Shown: one piece after another, positions 4,082 through 57,119 of the stretch | How positions within the stretch are numbered: position 1 is the stretch's first letter | How the letters are laid out: every line of letters begins with the position of its first letter | Origin: an uncultured virus (IMG/VR IMGVR_UViG_3300029955_000017) | Lineage: Duplodnaviria; Heunggongvirae; Uroviricota; Caudoviricetes | Direction: 5' to 3' (one strand) | DNA length: 64,000 nucleotides | IMG/VR virus record: IMGVR_UViG_3300029955_000017 | Notes under the pieces: generated by a model | What the model saw: only the letters and a program-made list of their open reading frames with translations | What the model was told of the DNA's origin: nothing | Database searches by the model: none | Made by a program: the position numbers and the translations under genes

Positions 4082-6316
4082 GTGACCTCGGCGTTCAACG
4101 CCAATTTCGCGCAGCAAGCGCGAGCGCTTCAAAATGGGGGTGGGGGTAGCCGCGCCAGTCGCGCAGGGAAGACGGTTGCGCGCCGCCCGGTACGCGGCAT
4201 CGAAATAAAAGACGACACCTACGCCAACCTAAAGGTCATCATGGCCGATGGGTCGGCCCTTCCCCTCCTTGACTCCAGTTCGAGCACGGGCACCAACACT
4301 GACGGCTACACCAATTTCATTCTTCAAACGGTGCAAGAGCAACGTATGGAGAAGCATCAAATTGTTGAGACCTTCGGGGACTCCTACGTCTTCTTCTTTG
4401 GTGAGAGCCCCCGCTTTCTTGATTGCCAAGCGCTCCTCATCAACACCAATGATTTCAACTGGCGCGCAGAGTGGTGGTACAATTACGAGAAATACTTGCG
4501 AGGAACCAAACTCGTAGAACTCGGCGCGCGCTGCTACATGGCGTGGGATGACATTGTTCTCGAAGGCTACATGCTCATGGCGGTGGCCGATGAGGCAGCG
4601 GATCAGCCTTATTCCGTTACTCTTCAGTTCAAGTTCTTTGTTACCAATTATCAGAACGTAAGCTTGAGCAACGTGGCGCAGTTTCCGGTGCGTTCGAGCG
4701 TGCAGCTCCCACCAGGTGTAGAGCTCACCCAATCCGATGCGTTCAGCCAACTGCAGGCGTACTACCGCGGTGCGGCGGCGAGCCAAGGGGCTTCCGACGC
4801 CCTACCTCAGGGTCAGGCGCTGCTCGGATTCGAGTTGCAGCAGGGAGGTTTGCCCGTTGGTTCCCTCGCGTCCCCGGTTCTGACGTCCACAGGCCCGACG
4901 TCCTATGCGTTTGGGGCTTCCGCCGGCGCGAGCATCAGTGCGAGCTTGGGCGCTGGGGTCGGTGGTGGGTTTGGCGCTAGCGCCGTGGCCAGCATCGGGT
5001 TCGGCGCTAGCGCGTCGGCGTCCACCGGGGCGGGAGCTTCCATGAACCTTGGTATCGGGGCAGGCGCCCAAGCCACCGCGGGGTTTGGCTCGGCTACCAC
5101 CATTTCTCAGCAAATTCGACAGCTGCCCCCCGCGGCTGTAACCGACCCGTCCATCTGGAATGCCGTCCAAGGGACCCCAGCGGCAGGTGACGCGGGACAA
5201 TACTTTACGCAACGCGGCGCTCTACGCGGGCTCATCGCGGAAAACGTAGATGAGTACCTCGGGGGTTCCGGCGACTCCGTCGCGCTGCGCCCGGGGTTGC
5301 AAGATCCCAACGACCCCACCGCGAGCGCGCTGAGCGACGTACAGATGGGTCCTCAAGAGCTTGACGCAGGGTTGCCTTTCAGTGTGATGAGTACGCTGGC
5401 GTCTTTGGGGGTAACCACGGATCAAGACACGCTCGATGCCCTTGGTCTCGGCCCCAATTTCTCCCTGGCGTATCAGATGAGCGTCTCCGCGTACGTGACG
5501 TCGTCGGGCTACGGCGCCACGGTGGGCACCAGCACATCCTTCGGGGGCGCCTCGGCGCAAAACGTCAGCTTCAGCCCGTTGAACAACGCGTCACTAGGGA
5601 CGTCACCGGCCAATACTGTTGGACTGAGTGCGCTCGCTGGGTATTACGCGAACACCGCGGACAACAGCAGCTTCATCGCGGCATCACCCTATTACAAATA
5701 CCGCGATCCCCTGGGTGCGGTGTATGGCAGTACCAGTGCCACGACGACAGGGTTTGACCCTGCGCGTTACCAATTCGTTGAGGGCGCTGGGAACCCCACG
5801 TACGGGTATGACAGTCCCTATGGGGACGTGGGATACGGCCAGGCAGGGTACGGAGACTTCGGGGGTACTGGCTTCGGATCGGGTAATTCAACGGGGGATC
5901 CGGGGTACATGAACGCGCAAGCGGTTAGTGTCACCAGCGCAGATTCTTCCGTGATGTCAGCGCTCTCTCGTCTCAAGTTTGACGGCACCGCGCTCACCCC
6001 GGGCCCCTCGTTGGGGAGCACTGCGACGTTGGGCGCGGCGTCGTCGCATGTACCGGGCGTCAGCTCCGCGTTTTCCGTGACGTCGTTTGAAGGCTCCTTC
6101 AGCGATTGGGTTTTGGCAGCTACGGCCGAGCCAGTTCCTGTGTACGGTCAAACGCCTACAGGCCCTGGCGCGGGACAAGATACGGGCCCTGACTTGGGTT
6201 ACTCTGCCTACCGACGCAGCAAAACCCCCTTGGCGCAGCCCTACGTGTCGACCGTACAACCTCCGGCCATTCCTCTTTCTCAATCCCCCGGCTTTTCGTA
6301 CTTTGGCTTTTCCTGA
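4082..6316 (+). CDS. Virion structural protein (tail-tube/baseplate-like N-domain, G/A/S low-complexity C-part)
   Basis: Beta-rich N-terminal ~200 aa; position between TMP-like and hub-like genes; TATATT-N6-GTG upstream. Confidence 0.55.
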   Translation: MTSAFNANFAQQARALQNGGGGSRASRAGKTVARRPVRGIEIKDDTYANLKVIMADGSALPLLDSSSSTGTNTDGYTNFILQTVQEQRMEKHQIVETFGDSYVFFFGESPRFLDCQALLINTNDFNWRAEWWYNYEKYLRGTKLVELGARCYMAWDDIVLEGYMLMAVADEAADQPYSVTLQFKFFVTNYQNVSLSNVAQFPVRSSVQLPPGVELTQSDAFSQLQAYYRGAAASQGASDALPQGQALLGFELQQGGLPVGSLASPVLTSTGPTSYAFGASAGASISASLGAGVGGGFGASAVASIGFGASASASTGAGASMNLGIGAGAQATAGFGSATTISQQIRQLPPAAVTDPSIWNAVQGTPAAGDAGQYFTQRGALRGLIAENVDEYLGGSGDSVALRPGLQDPNDPTASALSDVQMGPQELDAGLPFSVMSTLASLGVTTDQDTLDALGLGPNFSLAYQMSVSAYVTSSGYGATVGTSTSFGGASAQNVSFSPLNNASLGTSPANTVGLSALAGYYANTADNSSFIAASPYYKYRDPLGAVYGSTSATTTGFDPARYQFVEGAGNPTYGYDSPYGDVGYGQAGYGDFGGTGFGSGNSTGDPGYMNAQAVSVTSADSSVMSALSRLKFDGTALTPGPSLGSTATLGAASSHVPGVSSAFSVTSFEGSFSDWVLAATAEPVPVYGQTPTGPGAGQDTGPDLGYSAYRRSKTPLAQPYVSTVQPPAIPLSQSPGFSYFGFS

Positions 6317-9300
6317 TGCAAGCTGCCCACGCTCAGACCCTTCACCTTCGCTTGTTCTTGGAAGGCATTGAGGTTCCTGTCATCGGCGCCCAGGTGCAAT
6401 GCGCACCGAACAGCCCGGCGGTGGCTACCATTCAAATCGCGCCGTTGGTGGAAGCCACGCGATTGCACCCGCGCACCACGGTGCACTTGTTCTTCTTGGA
6501 CTTGTACGCCACCCCGCTCGCGATCAGCGGCAACACCCACCAAGGACAAGCCGCTACCAGTCCTACGGACGCAGAAGCCACAAGCCAAGGAACCAGCGAC
6601 GATACCCGCTGGAAGCTTCTTTTTGGTGGGGAAGTGGTGGGCTTTACCTGGACTAAAGACGCGCTCAACCGTTCCGTGATTCTGCAGTGTGAGGATTGGA
6701 GTAATTACTGGGATTACGCGCTGCAAGCAGAGAACACAGACATCTTTGGGCCGGGGATGAAGGCCATCTTCAGCGGGGCCTCCACCAATCTCTTTACGGA
6801 CTTCTTACAGAGCAACGGCGAAGTTCTGACGCAAATCGTTACCAGTGGTAAGTGCAACACGTTCCCCACGTTGAAGGGACTGGCCGCCGGTGTCATCCGT
6901 TTGATGGAAGTGGTGGGTGGAAGTTACTACGTGTTTCCTACGGGCAATAGCAGCGCGCCCCCGAAGCGCTGTGCCGGCCAGAACATTTTCTTTAGCTACA
7001 ACGAACTGCGCCTTCATCTGACACAAATGGTTGGGACACCGAGCAAGGACCCAACTAGCGAGCGCATCATGAAGTACCAGGGGTACAGCGGAATGTTCTC
7101 CCGCGCTCTGGGTGCTCAAGGGGGAGAAGTTTCAATTCGGCAGGCTATGAATGCCATTTCGAAGATCATTTTCTATGAGATGCACCCACAACCTTGTCCT
7201 CAGTACATCCCGGGGTCGTACGGGGAAGTGAGCGGCATGAAGCGCGTAAAGCTTGCGGACAATCCGGACTTTGGTCAGTTCGCAACCACTGCTAATGACG
7301 TCGTCACGGGTATCGCGGATCTCTTGACCCAACTTGGAACGGTGTCGACGGGGGATCCTGCAAGCTACACCGCTAGCGTGCACACCTTGGCCACGACATT
7401 GATTCAGCAATTGGGCAGTGCTCGACGAACGCTGCTGCGTGCGGTAGCCCAAATGCGCAATGTGCCCGAACCGGCGCCCTCTTTGATGAGCGCCTCGGCG
7501 CAGCTTTTGGGGCAAGCGTTGACATCCGCGCAAGCGCTGGGAGGCGCCAGCGTCCAGGGTAAGAGTTCTTCCAGCATGCTCAGCGCGCTGCAACAAACGT
7601 TGACCCAAGCGCAGCAGAAGCTGCAGCAGGTGGCTAGTACCGACACGTACGTGGGTGGGGGTGTTAACCGAACGCCTGCACAGCTTTACCAACAGGTGTT
7701 TCGCCCCGACGTTTGGTTTACGGCGCCGCCGCGCTGCAACGTGTTCTTTCCTGAACTCTATCAGGGTTTGAGCTACCAGCGTTCCTTCCTAAAAGAACCC
7801 ACGCGTCTGATGCTGAAGACCAATGACGAGTTCTTCGGCGAGGACACGCTCTTCGACAACTTCTACTTTGCTCCCACCGCGGGTACCGTGAAGGGCGAGC
7901 AGGCGAACTTGACGAAGATGCTTCAATCGCAGCTTCTTCTGCACGAGCGCTTTACAGGAATCTTGCCGGTCTTCGAGAAGATGGGCGAGTTCAATGTCTT
8001 CGCGTCTCAAGCGGAGCATCGTGTGGGTATTAAGAAAGTAGGCTTGGCGCAACGCACGGCCAATTTTCTCTACTTCCGTCATCGGTTCAACGCGCGGCGC
8101 ATGACGGTGTCGGGCAAGTTCAATCCGTACATTGCCGTGGGCTGCCCGGGGCTCATCCTCGATAAGTACGTCAACCGCGATGCCATCGCGCGGTACAACG
8201 CCTTGTGCGCACAACAGAATGTGCCGCAGACCGACGCGGGCGCGATCCTCGGAACCAACTTCCTCGGGAACTTCGCACAAGTTGTTCATCAAGCATCCGC
8301 CATGGGGCCCAACGGATCGACCGACATCCAAATCACGTTCGCGCGTCAGCCTGAAGAGCGCATTGACTTCTTGGGGGCCATCCCTGATGACGCTCGCGTA
8401 CGCCAACGCGTTGATGGCGCCGACGCCGTTCGGTCAACGACCGTAGCGGCTCTTGCCGCACCGGCGATCTTCTCCCTTGGGCCTAGTAACGGTGTCATCA
8501 GCAATGTGGTTGATGTGACGTCGTCTTCTACGGGACAGTCACTGCCCTTTTTCTATTCGGGGTTCAAACGCAATTCGAGCTTTCGCCCCCCAAGCGTCCC
8601 AATCGGCGTCGACGTGAGCGCCAGCGCTTTAGGTTCTGATGACCTCATGAACTTGCTCGGGGGACCTGGCGTAACGGCGTACTTCCGCGCGTACACCGTG
8701 ACCGAGAGCATCCCCCGGTACCGCAGCGAAGAAATGCTGCTTCCCGCTGAAGAATATATCCGGCCGGGTTGGTACGGGGACTGTTGGACTAATTCAAAGG
8801 TCGGCGAAGTTTGGAACGAGTTATTTGCCACGGGGGCCATCACCGACCCGCAAACCATCAGTGATCAGGGGCGCAGCTCAGCGGCATTGAGCCAGTCTCC
8901 TACCAGTGCCCAGCCCGACCCAACCAGTGGAAGCGATCCCGCTGGCGATGCACCGGGGGTGCTGTCCCTGCAAGCCAACGCGAGCATTCAACAAGCGGTA
9001 GAGTACTTGCTCTTAACCTACTCATACATTAAGCAATCGGGCGCGGACGTCGACGAGTTCATCGGTGCTTACACCTGGCGGCCCATCGCGACGCTCGTGG
9101 ACATGTTTGGTACCAGCGACTTGGCCTACGACGCCAACGGTGAAAACGTTGTGCAAGGGTATGAGGGGTTTCACTCTCGGGCGGTAGGCCCTTACAACAA
9201 TTTGTTCGGCTTGGTCACGCCTGATATTGAGACGGTGCTCAACATCAAGCGCGGGTCGACCGCCGCCCATAACATCGACATCCGCAAGGATCGCCGCGAT

Positions 9301-9354
9301 ATGGTTGAAGCCTACGTTACTGCATTGCTATACGGAAATGCTCTTCTCGGATGA
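6316..9354 (+). CDS. Baseplate hub-like tail protein
   Basis: 1012 aa; LFGGEVVGFTW...VILQCEDW and MTVSGKFNPYIAVGCPGLILD segments resemble hub (gp27/Mu gp44-like) folds; TGATG coupling. Confidence 0.55.
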   Translation: MQAAHAQTLHLRLFLEGIEVPVIGAQVQCAPNSPAVATIQIAPLVEATRLHPRTTVHLFFLDLYATPLAISGNTHQGQAATSPTDAEATSQGTSDDTRWKLLFGGEVVGFTWTKDALNRSVILQCEDWSNYWDYALQAENTDIFGPGMKAIFSGASTNLFTDFLQSNGEVLTQIVTSGKCNTFPTLKGLAAGVIRLMEVVGGSYYVFPTGNSSAPPKRCAGQNIFFSYNELRLHLTQMVGTPSKDPTSERIMKYQGYSGMFSRALGAQGGEVSIRQAMNAISKIIFYEMHPQPCPQYIPGSYGEVSGMKRVKLADNPDFGQFATTANDVVTGIADLLTQLGTVSTGDPASYTASVHTLATTLIQQLGSARRTLLRAVAQMRNVPEPAPSLMSASAQLLGQALTSAQALGGASVQGKSSSSMLSALQQTLTQAQQKLQQVASTDTYVGGGVNRTPAQLYQQVFRPDVWFTAPPRCNVFFPELYQGLSYQRSFLKEPTRLMLKTNDEFFGEDTLFDNFYFAPTAGTVKGEQANLTKMLQSQLLLHERFTGILPVFEKMGEFNVFASQAEHRVGIKKVGLAQRTANFLYFRHRFNARRMTVSGKFNPYIAVGCPGLILDKYVNRDAIARYNALCAQQNVPQTDAGAILGTNFLGNFAQVVHQASAMGPNGSTDIQITFARQPEERIDFLGAIPDDARVRQRVDGADAVRSTTVAALAAPAIFSLGPSNGVISNVVDVTSSSTGQSLPFFYSGFKRNSSFRPPSVPIGVDVSASALGSDDLMNLLGGPGVTAYFRAYTVTESIPRYRSEEMLLPAEEYIRPGWYGDCWTNSKVGEVWNELFATGAITDPQTISDQGRSSAALSQSPTSAQPDPTSGSDPAGDAPGVLSLQANASIQQAVEYLLLTYSYIKQSGADVDEFIGAYTWRPIATLVDMFGTSDLAYDANGENVVQGYEGFHSRAVGPYNNLFGLVTPDIETVLNIKRGSTAAHNIDIRKDRRDMVEAYVTALLYGNALLG

Positions 9355-9397
9355 AGCAGGCTCAGCCTTTGCACGCCCTTGGGGGTATTCTCCGGAC

Positions 9398-10303
9398 ATG
9401 CCCTCGGCCTTCTTCGACGAGCTTTGCAAGATCGCCGCCGCCAAAAGCCAGTTCAGCGTCCCCCAAACCCGTTCCGGGCGTCGGTCCATGACCGTAGAGA
9501 CGCTGCTTCGCAAAGAAAAAGACGGGTCGCTCTACAAAGAGAAGGCCAAGCTGGCCGACGCCATCTCGAGTGGATTGCAGCATATGGCCTACGGTCAAGG
9601 TCTTCTACATGGGGGATTGGCCGAGAAGGCGGGCAAGAACCCGAGAGACTTTGACCCCGTCGAATTGCATGAGGGCACAGAGGAAGAAGAGCAAGAGCAC
9701 ACCAAGGATGTGCCGACCGCGCGCCAAATCGCGATGGACCATTTGACTGAGCACCCACATTACTACAAGGCGCTCGACAAAATGGAGAAGCACCTCGATG
9801 AAGAAGAAGGTGAGAAGAAAGCGTGGGCCAAGCTCGCCGGTGTTTGGCGGAATCCGGCTTTGTACACGTACGGGGGACGACCCCGCAGCGGTTTAGACAA
9901 ACACGCCGACTCCTGGAAACCGCAGTGGCTTGAGGCATCGTTCTCGCCTGACAGCGGGTATGGCACCCAAAACGCCGTGGTGCGTGCGAAGACCAAGCCT
10001 GGGGACGGCCCCGCGGTAGATGAAGGGCTCACCGAAGGTCAAAAGCCACGGGTCGACGCCACCTATTCCCAGCCAACCAATAGTTTGGTAGCGCCCAAAG
10101 AGGCGGCGGCGTGGTCCAAAATTGCAAGGCCCGCGGTCATGGGGCAGCTCGTGAGGAGCCCGACGGACACATGCCCCGATGCGGCCAGCTTGGGTGCGCC
10201 CGGGCGTATGCGTCATGAACTCGAGCACAATCTTGTAATGGGCCCTCTATCGGATGCCCAGCCGCTTACCGGGACGTCAACCGACGCGTACCAGAGGACA
10301 TAA
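9398..10303 (+). CDS. Putative internal virion protein with DUF5661-like domain
   Basis: ELHEG..EE.EHTKD...ARQIAMDHL.EHPHYYKAL segment; N-terminal AFFDELCKIA; TATTCT-N6-ATG places the start at 9398. Confidence 0.65.
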   Translation: MPSAFFDELCKIAAAKSQFSVPQTRSGRRSMTVETLLRKEKDGSLYKEKAKLADAISSGLQHMAYGQGLLHGGLAEKAGKNPRDFDPVELHEGTEEEEQEHTKDVPTARQIAMDHLTEHPHYYKALDKMEKHLDEEEGEKKAWAKLAGVWRNPALYTYGGRPRSGLDKHADSWKPQWLEASFSPDSGYGTQNAVVRAKTKPGDGPAVDEGLTEGQKPRVDATYSQPTNSLVAPKEAAAWSKIARPAVMGQLVRSPTDTCPDAASLGAPGRMRHELEHNLVMGPLSDAQPLTGTSTDAYQRT

Positions 10304-10305
10304 AC

Positions 10306-11928
10306 ATGCTGACTACTGTTGAAGCCGGCGCATTCTGCGATGAGCTGGCAAAGATCGCGTTGGTTGAGCGCTTGGCACGCCTTGGGGCGACGGATATTCC
10401 GGGCACGCCTCGCTTATTGATGAAACACCGTGACCCCGAAGAGCTGGCCGCGCTTCAACACGGGATTACGAACACGTGGGATCGAGGGGCCGCGCCGCTT
10501 AAGGCCAAGGTCGATGCCGTCGCCGAGCATGTTCCCACCGAGCTCGGTAAGAAGGTGGTGCGCGGCCTTGGGCACACGGCCATCGATAACCCAGACGCCG
10601 CGTTGATGAGCGCCGTTCCCCTCCCGTTTGCCAGCGCTGCCTACATGGCCGGCAAAAGAGGGCTCGAAGGGCTCATTGATCGCGTTGCCCCCGTGGCTAA
10701 CCCCCAGCCACTGCTCAAAGCGGCTTTCTTGGCGTCGGGAGGTTACCTCCTTAATCAAGTGGGTAAACCTAAGGTGCGCCCTGAAAACCCTGAGCCAAAA
10801 CCCAGTCTTATTGTAAAACAGGGTATGTTTCCTACGGACACCCCGCCCGGACCGATTGATCCTTCGGTGACCAAACACCTCAAGGACAGCGCCCGTATCG
10901 CTGCACCAGGTAAGAGCCTTCCGGGCGTACCCAATTCGGCGGGCAGTGGGCACTCTATCGCGGGGGCGAAGACCGCTGCGAGCTGGACCAAGCTCGCGGT
11001 GAGCCCGGAGTGGATCAATGCTCGCGTACAGGCTGCGGCGGCGAACGGGGTGGACCCTGCCCGGGGGTACAAGTTTTTGGATCGCACGTCGAAGAAGTTC
11101 GTGTTCGGCACGAACGAAGCGGCGGCCAACAAGCACTTCTCGGCCAATTTCGCCGGATTGAAGGCCGGGCTGGGGAAGGCGCCCGAAGCAATTGCGGAAG
11201 CGGGGCGGCGCAACGCGGCCACCGCCGTCAGCGGCATTCGAAACGCAGCGCCAGCCGCGGTGGATGCGCTGGGGGCAACAGTGCCCTCTCTGCGCTCCAC
11301 CGCTATTTCAGATGCAGCGCCGGTGGCGTCAGCCGCCCGATCGATGAACCCCTACCTGTTGGGGGGTGCCGCCCTTGGGGGCGCGGCGTTGTTGGGCGGT
11401 GGTGCCTACTTAGCGCACCGGGCGCTCTCGCGGCCAGCCCAAGAGCCGCTGCCTCCCCAGGAGAAAGCGGCCTGGGCTAAGCTGGCCTTTAGCGACAGCG
11501 GCTTTGGGCCCACGGGAGGCGTCTTCCGACCCCAGTACGCGAGCTACCAAGGCACCGTGCCCATCCCGTCCCCGGTGGTCATGGACCCACGGCTGAAGCA
11601 CGGGGGCAATGCACCGCGCGATCAGAAGAAAGTGGCCTTCGACCAGAGTGGGTTTGGCATGGCCACGTCGATTGGGCCGACGCACGGGAACGGGGGCAAC
11701 CACGAGAGCTACCAGGGGCGCCTTCCCTTGCCTCCGGTCGTGACCCTCGATCCTTTTCTACGGAAGAAGACCGCGGCCATTCCCTTGACGCCCAAGGGGC
11801 GTTTAGCGAGCAGCGCGAGGGAAGGTGCGCCGAAGACCACGGGCTTTACCGGGCCCTCGGTAGCGGAAGTGTCCAAGCCGGTAGGTTTCGGGCGCAACCT
11901 GCCCGGTGCGTCGAAGGGCAGCATTTGA
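10306..11928 (+). CDS. Putative internal virion (poly)protein with repeated K-x-A motifs
   Basis: N-terminal AFCDELAKIA shared with upstream gene; repeated W-x-KLA; internal duplication near C-terminus. Confidence 0.55.
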   Translation: MLTTVEAGAFCDELAKIALVERLARLGATDIPGTPRLLMKHRDPEELAALQHGITNTWDRGAAPLKAKVDAVAEHVPTELGKKVVRGLGHTAIDNPDAALMSAVPLPFASAAYMAGKRGLEGLIDRVAPVANPQPLLKAAFLASGGYLLNQVGKPKVRPENPEPKPSLIVKQGMFPTDTPPGPIDPSVTKHLKDSARIAAPGKSLPGVPNSAGSGHSIAGAKTAASWTKLAVSPEWINARVQAAAANGVDPARGYKFLDRTSKKFVFGTNEAAANKHFSANFAGLKAGLGKAPEAIAEAGRRNAATAVSGIRNAAPAAVDALGATVPSLRSTAISDAAPVASAARSMNPYLLGGAALGGAALLGGGAYLAHRALSRPAQEPLPPQEKAAWAKLAFSDSGFGPTGGVFRPQYASYQGTVPIPSPVVMDPRLKHGGNAPRDQKKVAFDQSGFGMATSIGPTHGNGGNHESYQGRLPLPPVVTLDPFLRKKTAAIPLTPKGRLASSAREGAPKTTGFTGPSVAEVSKPVGFGRNLPGASKGSI

Positions 11929-12492
11929 CGCTGAGGGACGCACGAAGAAGCGGTATATGAGCCCCGCTACCAGCAGGTTGAAGGCGAGGACACCACCGGC
12001 GACGAGGATGATGACCAACGTTCGGTGTTCGGTTGCGGCCTCGAGTTGAGCCAAGGTACCCTGCGTTGCCGTGAGCGCGGCTTGGGCTTCCTTCAGAAGA
12101 GACGCGAGATAGTTCTCTTGTTCTGCTAAACGGGGGACGACAACCGTATCCCACGTTTCTCCGAATGTTTGACCTAGGGTACCAACCGCATGGTTAAAGC
12201 GTTGTTCGATGTCTTGCCCTGCCTTGCGCTCTGTTAATAAAGCCCGGGTCGCGAGGTGGTCACCGGCTACTTCCAGCTTGGTGAAGGACGCATCTTCAAA
12301 AGGAAGCACCGGCTGAAGTGCGCTCGTCATCAGCTTAGGGATTTCCGGCTCAACGCCTTTTGCAGCGCTTTGCATCAAGGAGGCCACATCGCTGTCGCCG
12401 TGCTTCACAAGAGTTTGTTCCGCCGACGCAAACCACGAGGCACACCCTGTAATAACGAGAGAAAAGCTCAGTACAAACCAGCGCAACATCAT
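11803..12492 (-). CDS. Lipoprotein with C-terminal TM helix (u-spanin-like architecture)
   Basis: Signal peptide with lipobox VITGC, helical middle, hydrophobic C-terminal segment. Confidence 0.55.
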   Translation of the reverse strand: MMLRWFVLSFSLVITGCASWFASAEQTLVKHGDSDVASLMQSAAKGVEPEIPKLMTSALQPVLPFEDASFTKLEVAGDHLATRALLTERKAGQDIEQRFNHAVGTLGQTFGETWDTVVVPRLAEQENYLASLLKEAQAALTATQGTLAQLEAATEHRTLVIILVAGGVLAFNLLVAGLIYRFFVRPSASNAALRRTGQVAPETYRLGHFRYRGPGKARGLRRTFPRAAR

Positions 12493-12529
12493 GATTAAAT
12501 GGAAAGCGTGTGGTCTGGTCCCGTCAACA

Positions 12530-12556
12530 CAAAAGGCAGGGGATGCGTGGCATAAG
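12530..12556 (+). promoter_or_regulatory. Phage-type promoter CAAAA-N14-GGCATAAG
   Basis: Copy of recurrent intergenic motif, 13 nt before ATG 12570. Confidence 0.65.
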
Positions 12557-12569
12557 AGGGCTGAGACCT

Positions 12570-13232
12570 ATGACCTCGCATTTACATGACGGGTGCCCCG
12601 TGGTGCTGGCCGCCGTGCGTCGGGCCACTTTTTTACCTCTGTGGTTATTCGTAAGCGATCAGGAAGCGCTTTGGGCTGACATTGAGGAGCGCGCACGCGC
12701 ATCGCGCCCCGATGATACCGCCGTACGCTTGCGCATGTTCTACAGCCTTGAGCTTTTGTACACCCAAGCGATTCCTCGGCAGGTATTTCTGTCGGCCAGC
12801 CTTGCGCCGGTGACGCAAAAACTCACGCTCTCCTCCTACTTGAAGCCGATGTATCCAAGAACCAATGCGGGCCTTGTGGCCCTTCAGCAGGATGCGGTGC
12901 GGCTTCGTTTGCGCCTCTCCGGGTTGGCGGGTTCCGCCGTTCTTCTTCAAAATCATGAAGACACAAGCCTTCAATGGGTTGCCGTTTACGATACCCTGCG
13001 AACGCTACTCGGGGCCGTAACGACAACCGTTGACGCTATTAGTGGGTGCCTACGCCGCAACGATGTTCAACAAGCGGCACACGTAGGCACCTTGTTGATG
13101 CAGTCTTTTTACGATTCACATTTAACCAAAGCAGAGATCGAGGTTGAGCTGCACGCGTTGCTCAACGTGACGTCCTTCAATGCAGGAGCCCCATGGCAAA
13201 AGAACGTAAAGAACCCGAGCTCGCCGAGTTGA
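12570..13232 (+). CDS. hypothetical protein
   Basis: ORF directly downstream of promoter motif. Confidence 0.65.
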   Translation: MTSHLHDGCPVVLAAVRRATFLPLWLFVSDQEALWADIEERARASRPDDTAVRLRMFYSLELLYTQAIPRQVFLSASLAPVTQKLTLSSYLKPMYPRTNAGLVALQQDAVRLRLRLSGLAGSAVLLQNHEDTSLQWVAVYDTLRTLLGAVTTTVDAISGCLRRNDVQQAAHVGTLLMQSFYDSHLTKAEIEVELHALLNVTSFNAGAPWQKNVKNPSSPS

Positions 13233-13570
13233 TCTTTCATGTTGAAGAACATTCATTGCTGGAATGCCCGGGAGCCCTGTTCAAGGCTACGGGACGCGTT
13301 ATTCTTACAACGGAAGTTGGCAACCTGGCGTTGTGGGATCAGGTTGTAAAGAAGTTGGACGGCCTGCCGGTTTATTCAGCGACTACACTGGCAGAGACCC
13401 TTGTGGAAGCGGTCAAGCAACGGACCACCAAAGCGTTGGAAGACGCTCGTGTGGAGATCGAGCAACTAAAAGCTTCCGTGGCCTTCGAGATCGATCGCAA
13501 CGATCGGTTGACACGAGAAGCTAAGGATAAGATCCAAGAACTTCAACAAGAAGTTGATGTCCTTCGATAG
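13193..13570 (+). CDS. hypothetical coiled-coil protein
   Basis: AGGAG RBS; E/K-rich heptad C-terminus. Confidence 0.7.
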   Translation: MAKERKEPELAELIFHVEEHSLLECPGALFKATGRVILTTEVGNLALWDQVVKKLDGLPVYSATTLAETLVEAVKQRTTKALEDARVEIEQLKASVAFEIDRNDRLTREAKDKIQELQQEVDVLR

Positions 13571-13600
13571 TTTATAGACGCGGGATGCTACGCTTAAGGC

Positions 13601-14077
13601 ATGCCCCGCACGATGAGCGTTTGTGAGTCACAAATTACAACGGAAGAGAGCGCTGACCGGCTGTACGCTTTCCTCAAGACCGGCGCGGATACAACGCAGC
13701 CTGAAGTCAATGCATCGGCGGTGACGGGCTTGAACCCGGATCCGTACGCAGCGCCGCCTCTGCGCAAAGACCTCGAAGGCACGGACAGCGCCCTGTGGGG
13801 ACAAGAGCCGGAAAGCGATGGCAAGGCCACCGCTCAGGTGCACTCGAACGCGGTGTGGGATGGCTTTCGTGCTGGGCGGGAGCGGTTCCTTGAACGTAAC
13901 TTCGATTCCTTTAAGCCGAGTCAAGAGCAGACGCAGGCACTGTTGAGCGGTCAGCTCGAGCACTTCAAAAGTGGGGATCACGAAAGCTCGACGCCCTTCA
14001 CGCGAGACCACAGCAAGCGCCGCCCTGTAGAGGTCGAAACCGTGTTCGACAAAACCAAGCGGCTCTTGGGTACGTGA
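13601..14077 (+). CDS. hypothetical protein (possibly virion)
   Basis: TGcTACGCT-N6-ATG leaderless start. Confidence 0.7.
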   Translation: MPRTMSVCESQITTEESADRLYAFLKTGADTTQPEVNASAVTGLNPDPYAAPPLRKDLEGTDSALWGQEPESDGKATAQVHSNAVWDGFRAGRERFLERNFDSFKPSQEQTQALLSGQLEHFKSGDHESSTPFTRDHSKRRPVEVETVFDKTKRLLGT

Positions 14078-14103
14078 AAGCAGCAAGCATCCGAGGGCAT
14101 AAC
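14076..14103 (+). promoter_or_regulatory. Phage-type promoter GAAAG-N15-GGCATAAC upstream of sigma gene
   Basis: Motif copy followed by GGAG RBS and ATG 14122. Confidence 0.65.
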
Positions 14104-14121
14104 ATCCTCGGAGAACACCAC

Positions 14122-14934
14122 ATGCCGACGATCGATCCTCTCAACAGCTATCTTCGGAAGAAGACGGCCGCCCAACAAAAATGTGAAGAAGACGATCACG
14201 CCTTGGTTACCCAGTGGCAGCAGGCGCATCAAGGCGACGCTGTAAACCCCGCGCTGACGCATCAAGTACTTCAGCGCTTTCAGCCTACGATTCAAACGGC
14301 GCTGAAGAAGTACAAATCGCCGCTCACGGGACCGGGCATCAACGCCGCTGCAAAAACCTATGCGGTTGAAGCCCTCAGAACGTACGACCCCTCCCGCGGC
14401 GCTTCTTTTAACACGCATTTGACCAATACGTTGCGGCGGCTGCATCGAGAGAACAATCAAGCGCAAGCCTCCTACGTTCCGGAAGACCATGTGACGTACT
14501 TCGGGCCCGCTCAGCGCGCGCACGATGAATTCGTCGATGAGTTTGGGCGGACACCGACGCCGGAAGAGCATGAGCAACGGCTGAATGAAATGCTACCGGA
14601 ACGCCGCCGTTTGGCCCCCGGGGCCTTGGCACCCATCCTGGCGCTCAAGCGCAACACCGTGGTCTCCAGCAACTTCGCTTCGTCTCCCAACACGTTTGCG
14701 CAGGATCTAGAGCAGCAAAATGTGGCGCTTGGGCGCCATGACCTCGCTGAGCCGGATCGCAAAGTCTACGACTTGATCTACGGCAACAACGTGACGAGTA
14801 CCGGGGACATCGCTAAGCGCTTAGGTATGAGCGACCCCGCGGTTTCTCGTGCAAAGACCCGCATCGAAAAGACCCTCTCCCAACCGGTGGGCGCTTCCAA
14901 GCGCAAGAAGCCGGGCGCTCTTTCTTCCCCGTAA
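14122..14934 (+). CDS. RNA polymerase sigma-70 family factor (group 3, FliA/SigF-like)
   Basis: Region 2 AVEALRTYDPSRGASFNTH; region 3 FGRTPTPEE; region 4 HTH STGDIAKRLGMSDPAVSR. Confidence 0.85.
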   Translation: MPTIDPLNSYLRKKTAAQQKCEEDDHALVTQWQQAHQGDAVNPALTHQVLQRFQPTIQTALKKYKSPLTGPGINAAAKTYAVEALRTYDPSRGASFNTHLTNTLRRLHRENNQAQASYVPEDHVTYFGPAQRAHDEFVDEFGRTPTPEEHEQRLNEMLPERRRLAPGALAPILALKRNTVVSSNFASSPNTFAQDLEQQNVALGRHDLAEPDRKVYDLIYGNNVTSTGDIAKRLGMSDPAVSRAKTRIEKTLSQPVGASKRKKPGALSSP

Positions 14935-15002
14935 TTCATTCTCCTGTCTATTTCCTCGCGGCGTCGGCTTACCCCGGCGCCGCTTTTTATTTGGAGTTTT
15001 TC

Positions 15003-16217
15003 ATGAATCAGACCTCGTTCCCGGATTATCAAGCGGCCGCTTCCTCCGCAGTCGTACAACGAGCGGACAGGCGTCTCAAAGAGTACACGCAAGCGGGCAA
15101 GCTGGCGGGGATGGCCCTCTTCAATACGCTGCGCGAGAACATCATCACGCCCTATCGCATTTACACGACCGACATGACCTTCGAGGGCGCTGCAAAAATG
15201 GGGGAAGCACCGATCTATCGTGCGCAAGTGGGTGACACCCGCAAGCTGTTTCAGTTGCACCGTCATGCGCTCGGGCAGATGGCCAGCGAAGTAAAAATCC
15301 CGACCACGTTCGTAAACACCCTGACCGAAGGGGAAGATTGGGAACGCGTGGAGCTGGCACAACTGCTCGAAGAGCGCTTTCACAAGCTCAATTTTAACCA
15401 GCGAGGGGGTGGTGCTCCCCGCTTCATCAACTTGGTGGTGGGGAACCAAGTACGGGGTTTCGTATCCCGCTCCTTCAAGCGCTACTTGAAAAGCGGTCCT
15501 ATCTTCGAAGCCTTCGTTACAGCCTGTGCGCAGTTCGGTGCCATGCCTGTGGAAGCGCTGACGAGCGACCTCGCATTTACGCTGCGCTGCGTACTGCCCT
15601 ACGTATTCGAGCTCAAGCGCAACAACCACATTGCGGTGGGCGTCAGCTGCAGCAACAGCGACTTTGGCGCGGGTACGTTCCGAATAAGTGCCACCGTTAT
15701 GAACTTGCAAACGGGGGTGATCTCCGTCGTGCGCCACGCCAAAGAAGAAAAGCACGTGGGAGCCGCGGAGAAGGACACAGGCAATAGCGAAGTCCTGTCC
15801 GACGAAACCATTGAAAAGAAGCTCTTGGCGACACAGTCGGAGGTACGGGATGTTGTGACTAGCGTGCTTCACCCAGATCACGTGAATGAGCTCTTGCAGC
15901 AGATTCGGGCGAGCATGGACAAGGAGATTTCCTGGTCCAGGTTTACGCATTACATGCAGGGTAAGCTGACAAGCGAAGAGCTGCGGGAGCTGAGTGTGAC
16001 GCTCGAGAATGCGCAGAAGAGCTGCGCCATCGCGGACATTACCTACGACGTCGACCAGCAGGCCATCATCAATCTTTGGTGGGCCGCAAGCGCCACGGCG
16101 GAAGTAGCGAAGCGCCACATCGGCGAAAAGCGCGATGAGCTTCAGTGCGCCGCAGGGCATCTTCTTTCCAGTGCCTTCTCTGCAGGAACCTTTACACCTC
16201 CCCGCACCACGCTGTAA
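15003..16217 (+). CDS. DUF932-like phage/plasmid protein
   Basis: HALGQMA..VKIP, VRGFVSRSFK and SNSDFGAG motifs; GGAG RBS. Confidence 0.6.
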   Translation: MNQTSFPDYQAAASSAVVQRADRRLKEYTQAGKLAGMALFNTLRENIITPYRIYTTDMTFEGAAKMGEAPIYRAQVGDTRKLFQLHRHALGQMASEVKIPTTFVNTLTEGEDWERVELAQLLEERFHKLNFNQRGGGAPRFINLVVGNQVRGFVSRSFKRYLKSGPIFEAFVTACAQFGAMPVEALTSDLAFTLRCVLPYVFELKRNNHIAVGVSCSNSDFGAGTFRISATVMNLQTGVISVVRHAKEEKHVGAAEKDTGNSEVLSDETIEKKLLATQSEVRDVVTSVLHPDHVNELLQQIRASMDKEISWSRFTHYMQGKLTSEELRELSVTLENAQKSCAIADITYDVDQQAIINLWWAASATAEVAKRHIGEKRDELQCAAGHLLSSAFSAGTFTPPRTTL

Positions 16218-16227
16218 AAGCAGACCC

Positions 16228-16962
16228 ATGGCTAGACGACCAGTACCGACAGCAGCGCAAACGCGCGTGATGTCCCATGCTTGGTCTCGCCCTGGCCGCC
16301 ATGTAATAGGAATTGACGAAGTAGGTCGAGGGGCCTGTGCAGGCCCCTTGGTCGTCGTCGGTGTTCTGGCGGAACGGGAGTGGGATCATGCGCTCGCCCG
16401 TGATTCGAAGAAGCTTTCCCACAAGCGCCACATGGAAGGCTACGACGCTTTTATTAGTCAGGGAAAAGCGGGTGATGGAATCGTGGCCGTTCTCTTGGCG
16501 GCGTATGAACCCGAAGAAGTGGATGTTCTAGGGCTTGACGCCGCGAACCGCGACTTGACCCTGCGCATAGCCCAGGCACTGTACGCGCTTCAACCCTCCC
16601 CGATCATGCTCGATGGCGACCTGCTGCCTTTCATTGAGGGCATTCCGCCCGAAGACCTTTTCAACATGCCGTCTTCAGACGCGTTGGTCGCAAGCTCTGG
16701 AGCGGCCAGCGTTATTGCGAAAGCACACAGGGATACTGAGATGATGGAAAACCTGCACCCTGTCTTTCCTCAGTACGGTTGGTACTTCAACAAGGGGTAC
16801 TTGACCATGGGGCATGCGCAGGCCATCCAGCAGTACGGCGTGTGCCCCGTGCACCGCTATTCGTATCAACGCATCAAAGAATCCCTGGTAGACTCTTCCC
16901 TATGGCTATCCCGTCAGAAGCGGACCGTGACGCGCGCTTGGATGCGTTATCTTCGGCGTTGA
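16228..16962 (+). CDS. rnhB: Ribonuclease HII
   Basis: GIDEVGRGACAGP, DSKKL, AASVIAK..RD and YGW..NKGY motifs. Confidence 0.92.
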   Translation: MARRPVPTAAQTRVMSHAWSRPGRHVIGIDEVGRGACAGPLVVVGVLAEREWDHALARDSKKLSHKRHMEGYDAFISQGKAGDGIVAVLLAAYEPEEVDVLGLDAANRDLTLRIAQALYALQPSPIMLDGDLLPFIEGIPPEDLFNMPSSDALVASSGAASVIAKAHRDTEMMENLHPVFPQYGWYFNKGYLTMGHAQAIQQYGVCPVHRYSYQRIKESLVDSSLWLSRQKRTVTRAWMRYLRR

Positions 16963-17126
16963 GCGCGTGGTCTATACAGCGCACGACGTACCTGAATAAC
17001 CAAGTCGCTTTTTGCAAGCGCGTGCTTAAAGGGCGAACGGGCGCTGAGCGCCTGAACGCCGTCACGTCGACGCAAGCCAACGCATTGACGGTGGATTCCC
17101 TCACTCAGTTTTTGACGGGTGCGTAG
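16902..17126 (+). CDS. hypothetical protein
   Basis: TGgTAGACT-N7-ATG inside the 3' end of rnhB. Confidence 0.6.
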   Translation: MAIPSEADRDARLDALSSALSAWSIQRTTYLNNQVAFCKRVLKGRTGAERLNAVTSTQANALTVDSLTQFLTGA

Positions 17127-17138
17127 TAAGCTAGTCGC

Positions 17139-18176
17139 ATGAGCATCATCGTCGGTACCCCTGTCCTCCCCCAGGTTGAGAACACCGTCGAGATTGTTCA
17201 ACTTCAAGTTATTACACGTACCGAGGAATGGGAAAATCTCTTCGATCGCATTGAGATATGGCGCTCGAGGGTGTCGCCCCTTGGTCCGTTCGAAGCGCTC
17301 ACGGCCTTGAGCTGGTCGCCGGCTATTCTCCCTCGAAACGCCGGGGGTATTCCCCCACTCCCGGTAACCGGACGCCAAGTGCTCCTGCAGGGAACACAGC
17401 TACTTTTGAAGGTCGATGGCGTCGATGACCTCGTCGTAACCTTCAGTACTCCTGGCGCTGTTTCGTACGCAGCAGCAGCAGGAACAATCACTACTCAGGG
17501 CGCTGGGCGCTTCAGCGCCTATGTTGATGGTGACGGCAAAGTCATCCTCTTGGGAACACGTCCGGGAACTGGGGCGGTTCTTGAGGTTACGGGGGGAGAC
17601 GCTGCTCCTCTGCTGGGGTTGCCCCTGCATGGCCCGGAAAACATCGCGTATGGTAGGGATGCGCATATCGGGTTGATTCCAGGGCAGCAACAGTACCTTT
17701 TCACGGACTTACGTGGGAGCAAGCGCTACTACTACCGAACGCGCTTTTTCAACGCGCAGACGCTGGCCACCAGTGAGTTCAGCACCGCGTTCAGCGTCAA
17801 CCAATCCTTGGGGATTAGCCCGGCCAACGTCGTTTTTGGGTTCGTGGCTTTGGTCGGAACCGATGGGCGCCCGTTGGTGAACCAGCTGGTACAGGTTTAC
17901 GCGCCGACGCAGTCGCAATTGATTGAAGGCAAACTCGTCACCGGCCCCCGGCAAGCGCGGTTCACCGACGTCAACGGCTACGTTGCTTTCACGCTCGTAC
18001 GGGGGGTGCAGTACGTTGTCAGCGTTACGGGAACGGATCTTGTGCGCAACATTCAAGCGCCAACTGACCCAACGATCACGATGTTCAGCTTGTTCGAAAA
18101 AAGTATCGGGCTTCAAGACGACCTGTTCACCGTCGACCGCCCCCCTTTGGTCTACGCCGAAGCGAGGACGTTATAG
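17139..18176 (+). CDS. Virion structural protein
   Basis: Beta-rich; contains a module shared with 51128 and 58856 proteins; TAAGCT-N6-ATG. Confidence 0.6.
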   Translation: MSIIVGTPVLPQVENTVEIVQLQVITRTEEWENLFDRIEIWRSRVSPLGPFEALTALSWSPAILPRNAGGIPPLPVTGRQVLLQGTQLLLKVDGVDDLVVTFSTPGAVSYAAAAGTITTQGAGRFSAYVDGDGKVILLGTRPGTGAVLEVTGGDAAPLLGLPLHGPENIAYGRDAHIGLIPGQQQYLFTDLRGSKRYYYRTRFFNAQTLATSEFSTAFSVNQSLGISPANVVFGFVALVGTDGRPLVNQLVQVYAPTQSQLIEGKLVTGPRQARFTDVNGYVAFTLVRGVQYVVSVTGTDLVRNIQAPTDPTITMFSLFEKSIGLQDDLFTVDRPPLVYAEARTL

Positions 18177-18421
18177 TGAACCTTTTCACCCTCATCTTTC
18201 CTGACCGCCAGGGAAGCGGGCGCATAGGGCGCTGTCGTTTACCCTGGGTCTCCGGTCAACCTGTGCGGAGGTACTTGCACGCGCCCGTGCTTCGGGAGCT
18301 CGGTCTTATTGGATTATCCCAACGCTGCAAGCTGTACAACAGCCAGAAAACCTTGGTGAAGCTGTACTACGTCCCTCCCCCCAACGACTTCGTAGTGTTG
18401 ATCCCCGTGAGAGCGTCATGA
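18176..18421 (+). CDS. hypothetical protein
   Basis: Coupled to both neighbours. Confidence 0.55.
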   Translation: MNLFTLIFPDRQGSGRIGRCRLPWVSGQPVRRYLHAPVLRELGLIGLSQRCKLYNSQKTLVKLYYVPPPNDFVVLIPVRAS

Positions 18422-19311
18422 GCTACCAGAACGTCGACGTCTATGTGCTCACTCGGGACACCCAGCAGCCAGTGTCCGGGGTTTTGGTGCGCGTGTTCTC
18501 CCCCGATGGTTCGGTCATTTTCACCGAGAGCGAAACCGACGAAGCCGGCCACGTCGGCTTTACGCTGTGGAGTCAAACCTACAGCCTGCGCTTCTACCGA
18601 TTTCAGGCACGCTTTCGTCAGCCCCAGGTGATCGTTGTATCCGAAGGCGTAGGGGGTACCCCGGCACAGAACCAGTTCAATGTCTATGCCGAAATGATGG
18701 CATTGCCCATCGCGAACGACCCGTACCTTTGTCGGGCTTCCGGTACCTTTCGCGACATCACAGGTGCGCCGCATCGTAATCTCACCATCATCTTCATTGG
18801 TGAGTTTGCCCCAATCTTGTTACAAGGATCGGGAGTTCTGTCAGAGCGCAGGGCTATCAGGACCGACGACAAGGGCTTCGCCTGCGTGGATCTCATCCGA
18901 TGCGCCCGATATGCAGCGACGGTGGAAGGTTACGAGGATCATGTGCGCAAGATATGCGTACCCGACGCGCCGAGCGTGAGTTTGCCCGCGCTCCTCTTCT
19001 CTATGGTGGACTCCGTTTACTTCGATCCCCCCTCGCCCTGGACCCTCTCCGTTGGCAGCACGCTCTCCCTAACGCCTACCGTTTTCACCAACAGCCAAAT
19101 TCCGACGTTGGGACCCGATGGAGCCAACGTGATCTGGAAAGCCGCAGACCCGACGGTGGTCAGCGTGACCTTGTTGAAGCGCTCGCTGGTGCTGCGCGGG
19201 CTGAAGGTGGGCAACACGCAGCTCTTGGCCTCGCGCCGCGATCTCAGCATCATACCCATCCCCTTCCAGCCCGAACTGCTGGGCTCGGGTCAGAGCGTCT
19301 TCGTCCAGTAG
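18418..19311 (+). CDS. Virion protein with carboxypeptidase-regulatory-like and Ig-like (Big_2) domains
   Basis: PVSGVLVRV...TDEAGHV motif; C-terminal VIWKAADPTVVSV...GLKVGNT. Confidence 0.6.
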   Translation: MSYQNVDVYVLTRDTQQPVSGVLVRVFSPDGSVIFTESETDEAGHVGFTLWSQTYSLRFYRFQARFRQPQVIVVSEGVGGTPAQNQFNVYAEMMALPIANDPYLCRASGTFRDITGAPHRNLTIIFIGEFAPILLQGSGVLSERRAIRTDDKGFACVDLIRCARYAATVEGYEDHVRKICVPDAPSVSLPALLFSMVDSVYFDPPSPWTLSVGSTLSLTPTVFTNSQIPTLGPDGANVIWKAADPTVVSVTLLKRSLVLRGLKVGNTQLLASRRDLSIIPIPFQPELLGSGQSVFVQ

Positions 19312-19421
19312 GCTTTCGGCGTGCGGCCCACGACGCCCAGTGGGTCTTCGCCCGCGCCGCCGTCGCCCAGGTAGCGGCCCGGGCCGAAGAGCTCTTGCGC
19401 TGGTTGGGGGATGCCCTGCCC

Positions 19422-20003
19422 GTGACCCGCCCCTTCTTGGACGCGTTCTGTTGCGGGCTGCGAGCCCTCTTTTTACCGCACAAGCCGCCCCTTGTGCCCC
19501 TGCTGGTCGAGGTACCACCCTCCGCGCCCTCGATGCCGGCGCCATCGGCGTGGGAACCCGAAGGGCTCAACCTCAGCGACGTGCAGGAAGCGCTAGCGTG
19601 CTCGCCCGAGACCATTGATGGCTCCCAGGTCCGGGCATTGATGCTCGAGGTCATTCGACGCGCTGCGCACGACTGGGTTCTGTACCGTACGTCCACACGT
19701 CTTGAACTGCGCGAGCTAGCGCACGACGCCTACATCTGGCTGTTTGAGGAAGAGCCCGAAGGTCCGCGCTGGGCACTGCGGTGCTCGGAGGGAAAACAAC
19801 TCACGTCGCTGCACGGCATCTGCGACGTTTTGGAAGTTGACGCGGAGTTCGTTCGCAACCACGTGCGGCACTTGACGGCAAAGAAAATCAAGACCGCCGG
19901 TCGCCCACCAGAACGACGGAAGCGATCCACCGACGACGTCAGCTATTACAACGAGCACGCCCTTACGACCGCGTTTGAGTTTCCGGCGGAAGAAGAAAGC
20001 TGA
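19422..20003 (+). CDS. conserved-looking hypothetical protein (start uncertain)
   Basis: LMLEVIRRA..D...A..WLF...SL..ICDVL.VD pattern; true start must be after 19311. Confidence 0.55.
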   Translation: MTRPFLDAFCCGLRALFLPHKPPLVPLLVEVPPSAPSMPAPSAWEPEGLNLSDVQEALACSPETIDGSQVRALMLEVIRRAAHDWVLYRTSTRLELRELAHDAYIWLFEEEPEGPRWALRCSEGKQLTSLHGICDVLEVDAEFVRNHVRHLTAKKIKTAGRPPERRKRSTDDVSYYNEHALTTAFEFPAEEES

Positions 20004-20046
20004 CACGCGGTATAGAGTCCTGGGCGTAGGTCACCCGGAGGTTCTC

Positions 20047-20183
20047 ATGGATACGCTTTATGTCCTGTGCTGCGCCTTGACCTTATTGCAGTAATTCAGT
20101 GGTCGCTCACCTTTTACCTTTACTGGCGTCTTAACCGTTTGCGCTCATCCGATAAGGAGCGCGAACCTCTGCATATTGCCTAG
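20047..20183 (+). pseudogene. Frameshifted small membrane protein
   Basis: GGAGG RBS; MDTLYVLCCAL continues in the -1 frame as LIAVIQWSLTFYLYWRLNRLR. Confidence 0.45.
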
Positions 20184-20195
20184 TGGGAGAAATAC

Positions 20196-20729
20196 ATGAA
20201 TAGAGAATACACGCGCTTTTCGTTTGCAGTGCATGTAACGCCGCTGCAAAAAGAATGGCTCCTTGCAGCGAACGGTATCATTCTGAAGTCTAGCAGCGCC
20301 GGCGGCAGCAATACCTTGTACGTAAAGTCTGCCGTGCTGACGTACGACGATCTGAAATGGCTCACGCTGCAGTTTCGAGAGGAAGACATCTTTAGAGACA
20401 ACGAGCAAACGCTCTATGAGGCTGCGGGTATCCGCATTACTGAGGGTCGGCATTTTGTTTATATCTATGCGGAGCAAGACGGCCAGCCTTACGTAGCTGC
20501 CATTATTTGCCAACGCTTTCTTAAGCACTTCGACCTCAACGATATTACCTGCTTTTCCTGGGCTACCTTTGGGGATGAGCCGAGCATCGCAACTTTCGGG
20601 GGTGGTGTTTGTGCTGTGCACAAGGACGAGATCATGCGGGTAGATACAAACGAGTTGTTGAGCGAGCTCGCGAGCGACATGCGTCGACGCCACCCCGATG
20701 CGAGCTTGAGTAACAGGGTCGATGGCTGA
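20196..20729 (+). CDS. hypothetical protein
   Basis: GGGAG RBS, coupled to next gene. Confidence 0.7.
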   Translation: MNREYTRFSFAVHVTPLQKEWLLAANGIILKSSSAGGSNTLYVKSAVLTYDDLKWLTLQFREEDIFRDNEQTLYEAAGIRITEGRHFVYIYAEQDGQPYVAAIICQRFLKHFDLNDITCFSWATFGDEPSIATFGGGVCAVHKDEIMRVDTNELLSELASDMRRRHPDASLSNRVDG

Positions 20730-21027: not shown

Positions 21028-21052
21028 AGCGACCGCTCTTCGACAACCAAGG

Positions 21053-21091
21053 GCTAAAGAAAAGCGCTGCGGGCATTACGCCCCGAAAGCG
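21053..21091 (-). terminator. Hairpin + TTTTCTTTAGC tail
   Basis: Imperfect stem between convergent genes; conserved tail motif. Confidence 0.5.
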
Positions 21092-57011: not shown

Positions 57012-57119
57012 CGTAAGTCTCCGTAATAGTTATGCCAAAAAGTATCTGATGTTTCACGTGTTAGACGGCGCTCAGTACCGTTGTGCCCTAAATCCGTGCG
57101 ATGTTGCTAGACTGAAGCC

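Follow-up and report, generated by a model that had tools for sequence, protein, structure and literature searches.

Which RNA polymerase a phage-encoded sigma factor serves, and how that factor reaches a new host cell, is the question raised by positions 9,398 to 14,934 of the DNA analyzed here, a stretch of 64,000 nucleotides (the window) that forms the first 64 kb of a 72.7-kb uncultured virus record (IMGVR_UViG_3300029955_000017) and contains a gene for a predicted sigma factor (14122-14934). The first-pass annotation proposed that this sigma factor is made late, packaged through an N-terminal Lys-x-Ala (K-x-A) signal, cleaved, and injected to redirect the host core RNA polymerase (RNAP). 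Our analysis favors, with moderate confidence, a different account, in which the packaged sigma factor and a fused RNAP of the phage itself are injected together and transcribe the early genes from promoters of the form AAA...GG(C/T)ATAA(C/G). The evidence from sequence comprises the sigma fold, a conserved leader, a polymerase gene in the head module, a gp21-like protease, two promoter classes and a phage promoter before the sigma gene; that from a cultured relative, Salmonella phage Arash, consists of peptides of both the polymerase and the sigma factor detected in its purified particles.

A second record, G001 (167,481 bp), shows 10 mismatches to the window's record over 65,948 shared bases, and its ends overlap, so that the closed genome measures about 167.25 kb; adding 6783 to a G001 position gives the window position. 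The gene content (baseplate, ligase, endolysin, DNA polymerase A, primase, helicase, RecA, major head protein) is that of a large tailed phage, whose cultured relatives are Arash (OQ632216) and the Vibrio phages D69, D148 and D181. Comparison with the Arash homologs by phmmer gave expectation values (E) of 4e-32 for the capsid, 2e-78 for the portal, 4e-32 for the terminase, 2e-25 for the protease, 1e-209 for the polymerase and 3e-11 for the sigma factor, which is the syntenic ortholog of Arash Gp10. By sequence, these shared homologs place the phage among the Arash-like RNAP-encoding phages. Genes in the compared genomes (G numbers) and loci (L numbers) were called with a simple in-house caller, and some starts and intergenic labels are wrong.

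The sigma open reading frame (ORF) begins MPTIDPLNSYLRKKTAA, with its sole K-x-A at residue 14. As a single sequence the protein stays under the Pfam cut-offs; it matches PHROG 351 (E 2.8e-5), and a profile of 15 sigma sequences had Staphylococcus aureus SigB (8x6g_H) as its top match in the PDB (E 7e-13, positions 20-253). Among 72 members of the sigma clade, Pfam searches at E<=1 detected Sigma70_r3 in 63, r4 in 31 and r2 in 10. The structural model has a mean predicted local distance difference test score of 78, and its Foldseek list consists mostly of sigma factors, at template modelling scores of only about 0.3. Regions 2, 3 and 4 in this order, together with the predicted sigma fold, assign the protein to the sigma70 family as a group 3-like member.

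Outside the window, G001:106086-113633 encodes a fused beta-beta' RNAP of 2515 residues with an intein-like insert and the motif ADFDGD (Pfam Rpb2_6, 1.6e-56; Rpb1_2, 1.1e-20). The gene lies in the head module, between the portal and the protease-capsid genes, has 634 homologs, and was found in 13 of 14 related virus records having this sigma factor. Two of its regions whose bacterial counterparts bind sigma, the beta' clamp and the beta flap, align to bacterial RNAP. With a polymerase of the phage's own, present in nearly all relatives and the top virion protein of Arash, redirection of the host core is no longer the favored role of the sigma factor. The polymerase gene has TACGCT 8 nt before its ATG, which G002 and G003 retain as GGTACGCT; it lacks a sense phage promoter, the nearest one pointing away. 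G014 was considered as a case of sigma without polymerase and rejected, since the record is linear and the portal, the neighbor of the polymerase, was also not found, which makes it uninformative on polymerase absence. A profile of a second sigma family found no member in G001, G002, G003, G005 or G009, and a Pfam search for regions 2 and 4 found no second sigma in G001, G002, G003 or G005 (G009 lay outside this search). That family, a candidate late sigma, occurs at L115:5656-6693 (Arash gp196), G012:158196 and G014:111434. The intein-like insert of the polymerase (G001:106086) spans about residues 778-1134; this phage has a further one in its portal (G001:97686), and relatives have them in the protease (G002:62821, G003:122904), that of G002 right at the SMG motif.

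Proteins of the head module are rich in K-x-A: the observed count was 2.6 times the expected one in 40 head-module proteins, compared with 1.04 times for 69 non-virion proteins and 0.88 times for 9 polymerases, and six control motifs showed no rise in head-module proteins. In the capsid proteins of seven genomes a K-x-A lies near residues 23-29. The same module encodes a T4-gp21-like prohead protease (G001:123607-125199), for which a VIA structure search aligned 131 residues with T4 gp21 (Z 8.7, root-mean-square deviation 2.9) and gave a herpesvirus protease as second match (Z 7.5), the nearest Pfam families in the atlas being S77/S80; this supports the setting of proteolytic maturation assumed by the first-pass annotation. 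The protease has 1333 homologs at E<=1e-10. A K-x-A falls within residues 20-40 in 115 of the 118 homologs compared, after removal of 2 long rows, and the motif is concentrated in the protease tail (626 copies, where 231 are expected) and not in the core (147, where 173 are expected). T4 and phiKZ likewise use three-residue motifs (PMC9026906), and by this analogy K-x-A is likely the cleavage motif of the prohead protease in this lineage.

A K-x-A starting 8-28 residues ahead of the first conserved Trp was present in 62 of the 74 rows of the sigma clade (75 rows, with a support of 99 in the Shimodaira-Hasegawa-like approximate likelihood ratio test; one fragment was dropped), compared to a mean of 18.8 and a maximum of 32 of 74 in 2000 shuffling trials. 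The original proposal had been made dependent on such conservation. In the sigma body K-x-A is rarer than expected (54 vs 109). The flanks of the sigma sites score +2.42 on a head-protein matrix, which is head-like, while non-virion sites score -2.69. When a matrix was built from 59 sigma leaders alone and applied to this genome, G001:123091 (MNPLDLYLLSKHAD) ranked first, the sigma factor second and the window gene at 9398 third; the top 15 in five genomes included 6, 5, 6, 7 and 5 head genes, an enrichment in four of the five (p 0.009-0.03; G009, p 0.17). The distance from leader to domain varies widely among sigma homologs, and leaderless sigmas occur naturally. The conservation of the leader and its occurrence on head-module proteins suggest that the sigma factor has an N-terminal propeptide ending in the putative protease motif of its lineage. 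The resemblance first noticed, between the sigma start and the protein encoded at 10306-11928, is real in that TLDPFLRKKTAA (residues 480-491) is the best proteome-wide local match to the sigma N-terminus (score 46, next protein 44; 0 of 100 shuffles reached 46, maximum 41). It is internal, however, one among 8 K-x-A sites of that protein, and was rejected as a special signal, its L100 counterpart sharing no more than the K-x-A and some of the surrounding residues (TEDPHLTRKIAA).

The N-terminus closest to the sigma leader is that of G001:123091 (L008:3091-3597), a small head-module gene just 5' of the protease, with homologs at G002:66489, G003:125766 and Arash gp221, a candidate donor or co-user of the leader tag. 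Dispersed genes starting MNALEKYA or similar were observed in G005 (104642, 179136) and G009 (8757, 9136, 122816, 124284, 123733), which suggests a mobile leader marking lineage-specific cargo.

Two promoter classes were distinguished. The motif GG[CT]ATAAC is intergenic at 9 of its 12 genome sites, against an intergenic fraction of 8.5% (p 3e-8). Around GG[CTG]ATAA, an A-run about 18 nt 5' was present at 15/16 intergenic vs 4/20 genic sites, and another G, placed 14 nt downstream of the motif's first G, at 15/16 vs 6/20. The spacing of A-run, core and G corresponds to a -35, -10 and +1 geometry and defines a predicted bipartite promoter, AAA...GG(C/T)ATAA(C/G), with a predicted +1 G, a layout that we take to resemble sigma-28-type promoters. 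A matrix from G002, G005, G009 and G012 identified 19 sites in this genome (5 in one shuffle), which precede the ligase, the head of the replication operon, small accessory genes and the sigma gene, and none of which stands ahead of a labelled head, tail or polymerase gene, in agreement with the initial statement that the phage motif heads non-structural units. The copy of GGCATAAC before the sigma gene and the TACGCT before the upstream gene at 13601 were also correctly placed. Among the loci whose upstream DNA was covered, L100/101, L102, L103, L104, L105 and L020 retain the phage promoter ahead of the sigma gene. In this phage, read-through from the promoter at 12549 could also reach the sigma gene. 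The core also occurs in Arash as GGTATAA(G/C), mostly ahead of minus-strand genes and once before gp9-gp10. In G003, the best matrix matches are GAGATAAG or GG(T/G)ACAAG, with few GG.ATAA sites, a possible co-variation of promoter and sigma.

The second class consists of TAnnnT. Of 133 structural-strand genes, 11 have it at a distance of exactly 6 nt upstream of the start (expectation per position, 0.93) and 27 at 5-13 nt (expectation about 8), so that the early claim that it precedes most structural genes was right about enrichment and overstated its extent. The 6-nt peak recurs in G002 (7/144), G003 (7/177), G012 (4/150) and G014 (7/90, with a background of 2.3 in that genome). No canonical TTGACA/TATAAT promoter was found within 9300-15100, and TTG-anchored pairs precede 2 of 133 structural-strand genes; the TAnnnT sites here lack a TTGACA-type -35. 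Extended -10 elements and leaderless promoters are ordinary host features. In upstream regions of the G014 structural strand, TTGACA was the top enriched 6-mer (7 regions), which hints at canonical host late promoters; a paired -35/-10 test in that genome did not clearly separate the strands (17/90 vs 14/123).

For Arash, the presence of both proteins in particles is already published. In that report (PMC10585845), no particle protein is detected more strongly than polymerase Gp206, with 128 unique peptides and 3516 spectra; Gp216 has 40 peptides and 1210 spectra and the sigma factor Gp10 has 24 and 467. The virion protein table does not include the second Arash sigma, gp196. Our counts show that Arash head proteins are also K-x-A rich (e.g. 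gp220, 10 vs 3.0 expected). An ortholog listed in particles, in a permissive preparation, agrees with the presence of the sigma factor in virions that was first proposed.

As the sigma factor has the same K-x-A tag as head proteins and the phage has its own polymerase, both are likely packed. The following course of infection would then be expected. Late in infection, the host holoenzyme would use the TAnnnT promoters to transcribe structural units and the polymerase gene, and also the sigma gene through the promoter at 13589, a role for the host enzyme suggested by the lack of a second sigma in this genome. Sigma factor and polymerase would both enter the prohead, where the protease would trim the sigma leader at K-x-A, and after injection the two would transcribe the early units from the phage promoter without the host enzyme, with more sigma made via 12549 and 14096 in an early self-amplification. 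Cleavage at K-x-A, binding of sigma to the phage polymerase, early timing, the host late enzyme and self-amplification are the parts of this scheme that we infer. The wider proposition, that a widespread lineage delivers a two-protein holoenzyme of alpha-less beta-beta' and protease-matured sigma70, uses K-x-A as a portable capsid-targeting tag and leaves its late program to the host, is possible and put forward tentatively.

Several observations weigh against this reading. The K-x-A site of the window's own sigma scores 0.7, below the 90th percentile of non-virion sites (1.03), and lies within a predicted helix (residues 6-35). The leader is missing in the orthologs of Arash (Gp10), Vibrio D69, G014, L020 and L022, the homolog search profile took in the leader itself, the head training set was chosen after the K-x-A counts were known, and the related sequences counted are not independent of one another. 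Gp10 is leaderless and yet in particles, and its 100% coverage gives no sign of trimming in Arash; the leader is therefore not required and cannot be the only way in, and packaging via a K-x-A signal, as first formulated, would not explain the sigma factor of that phage. The same source describes a sucrose-gradient preparation with a list of 116 proteins, primase and ligase among them at 2 peptides each, and its authors allow for co-purification or carry-over (PMC10585845). The polymerase has no conserved K-x-A leader (a K-x-A within the first 12 residues in 38/120 homologs, 1623 K-x-A observed vs 1782 expected), and a KEA at residue 7 was rejected as such a leader on that count. No gene for an alpha-subunit C-terminal domain (alpha-CTD) was found in five genomes. 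Regarding the promoters, G005 and G009 show no 6-nt TAnnnT peak, the +1 G is missing in G012 (5/20), and G003 has only 4 intergenic sites. The phage promoter before the sigma gene is missing in L011, L012, L021, L022, L023, L106/107, L108 and L110; since it is kept in other loci, including the closest relatives, the positive autoregulation first suggested is plausible for this subgroup only.

Three other explanations were weighed against joint delivery of sigma factor and phage polymerase. The sigma factor might not be packaged at all, with host polymerase making it early from 13589 and its N-terminal helix being a remnant of region 1.2 in which K-x-A is vestigial or structural. The position of the site in a predicted helix, the host-type promoter feeding the sigma gene and possible contaminants in the Arash proteome are consistent with this, and the Asp-Pro...Tyr-Leu pattern of the leader is reminiscent of region 1.2. 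Pfam gives that resemblance no support, however: the region 1.2 family PF00140, a short model, matched in 0/5 genomes at E<=1 and does not appear in the list of 25 families obtained with the 72 clade members. Unrelated head proteins have the sigma-type leader, its distance to the domain varies widely, leaderless sigmas occur in nature, and Gp10 was detected with 24 unique peptides vs 2-3 for primase, ligase and uracil-DNA glycosylase in the Arash data (PMC10585845). We consider an unpackaged sigma factor unlikely.

Alternatively, the sigma factor could be packaged and injected and still redirect the host core, the phage polymerase being used otherwise, e.g. for late transcription. The leader is conserved on the sigma factor and not on the polymerase, this genome has neither a second sigma nor an alpha-CTD, the sigma factor aligns with ordinary bacterial sigmas, and G014 has promoter and sigma without a polymerase match, although that linear record with its undetected portal is uninformative. 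Against such a division of labor, the polymerase tops the Arash virion detection (PMC10585845, accessible part), its gene has a structural-type and not a sense phage promoter, which would be odd for an enzyme needed for late mRNA, and distant uncultured phages have the same promoter core as a Salmonella phage; we regard it as quite unlikely. Finally, both proteins could be packaged with the phage polymerase also reading the TAnnnT late promoters, together with an unrecognised phage factor or a host sigma, so that the host core is unused. The second sigma of Arash, G012 and G014, not listed in Arash virions, and the lack of a TTGACA-type -35 at the TAnnnT sites would fit, but the profile found no second sigma in the five genomes searched and the TAnnnT features are ordinary for a host, which makes this very unlikely.

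Joint delivery of sigma factor and phage polymerase, the reading we prefer, has partial parallels in known systems, described here as far as the accessible portions of the cited papers go. Arash and D69/D148/D181 share with this phage a syntenic sigma ortholog, homologous polymerase (Gp206/Gp216), capsid, portal and protease; Arash further has the K-x-A-rich head proteins, the GGTATAA(G/C) core and the report of sigma and polymerase in particles. It differs in its leaderless sigma, a polymerase split in two and the second sigma, and the accessible text of PMC10585845 names no processing motif or promoter. Phages N4 (PMC13434306) and P23-45 (PMC10770324) use a packaged polymerase for their first genes and the host polymerase for late ones, so that the order first regarded as the reverse of the usual has precedents; their virion polymerases are single and highly diverged, whereas here a near-bacterial beta-beta' fusion occurs with a recognisable sigma70-family factor. 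Phages phiKZ and AR9 (PMC7598289, PMC13282480) resemble it in an alpha-less multisubunit head polymerase, a conserved early promoter motif and protease-matured head proteins, and differ in having two polymerases, split subunits, no sequence-recognisable sigma and cleavage after Glu. The T4 internal proteins and gp21 (PMC9026906) offer a short N-terminal propeptide with a three-residue protease motif at its end and a protease of the gp21 fold; the T4 motif is L/I-x-E and not K-x-A, and here the cargo would be a transcription factor, with targeting and cleavage predicted. Like the mReC phages (PMC7481178), this is a tailed phage with bacterial-like beta and beta' among structural genes, and it has beta and beta' homologs with DxDGD, as that group does. 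Here the subunits are fused and the capsid matches PHROG 2522, not PF07068, which matched in 0/5 genomes in a search with no positive control match (terminase PF03237 matched in 2/5, not in G001). The accessible text of the mReC paper covers phylogeny and has 0 occurrences of 'sigma factor'.

According to the accessible parts of reviews, phage sigma factors recruit host core, phage multisubunit polymerases act without sequence-recognisable sigmas (PMC7598289), and as of 2020 none of the virion polymerases of jumbo phages had been purified (PMC7598289). A packaged sigma70 with a packaged near-bacterial polymerase would, if true, join both known strategies; the resulting holoenzyme would be minimal, lack alpha, and come with a promoter that is defined and a start site that is predicted, and Arash, being cultured, would allow a direct test of the model. 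The K-x-A leader would offer a means to predict head cargo across the lineage of protease and polymerase homologs. We found no paper on this leader or this promoter in a literature search that left subscription journals mostly uncovered.

Table 1 Features of the sigma locus and further copies of its promoter motif in the window.
Position	Strand	Feature	Remarks
9386..9391	+	TAnnnT (TATTCT), predicted leaderless structural-type promoter	6 nt before ATG 9398
9398..10303	+	301-residue K-x-A-rich protein (7 sites, DUF5661), probable internal head protein	Leader FFDELCKIAA
10306..11928	+	540-residue protein with 8 K-x-A sites, probable processed head polyprotein	Several sites kept in L100 homolog
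11743..11778	+	TLDPFLRKKTAA, match to sigma N-terminus	
12549..12556	+	Phage-type core GGCATAAG heading genes 12570 (220 residues) and 13193 (125 residues)	Top position weight matrix score 23.5; kept in L100
13589..13594	+	TG-extended TAnnnT (TACGCT)	6 nt before ATG 13601; kept in G002, L100
13601..14077	+	Conserved 158-residue gene directly 5' of sigma, possible leader	FLKTG here; FLKQA/FLKTA in homologs
14077..14110	+	Predicted bipartite phage promoter: AAA (~-32), GGCATAAC (14096-14103), predicted +1 G 14110, GGAGA ribosome site	
14122..14169	+	16-residue leader ending K-T-A (14161-14169), predicted prohead-protease site	Homolog conservation
14122..14934	+	Predicted sigma70-family (group-3-like) factor, regions 2-3-4, 270 residues	Profile, PHROG, structure searches
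14958..14993	+	Intrinsic-terminator-like hairpin (10 bp, 9 G-C) and T run, end of sigma unit	
21776, 23623, 36309	all -	Further copies of GGCATAAC	
57029..57036	-	GGCATAAC before ATP-dependent DNA ligase (55905-57011)	

Scattered pieces across 5000-24000, mostly at >=99% identity, were found in four peat metatranscriptome assemblies; these are contigs that may include DNA and are uninformative on timing, strand and start sites, and they were not used as evidence. On the minus strand, window 11803-12492 overlaps the end of the 10306 gene and encodes a lipoprotein-like ORF, spanin-like by inspection, with a signal peptide, LVITGC, a coiled coil and a C-terminal hydrophobic stretch. A pentapeptide-repeat protein (window 40987-41988, minus strand; Pfam 2e-99) is the probable source of over-represented words such as GCGGACCT. 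Other genes observed include a SocA/Panacea-domain gene (window 38900-40132, plus strand), a pair encoding a MoxR-like ATPase and a vWA/metallopeptidase (G001:101459-103968), a GNAT-pyrophosphatase ORF (G001:69210) and an HU-like protein (G001:82719).

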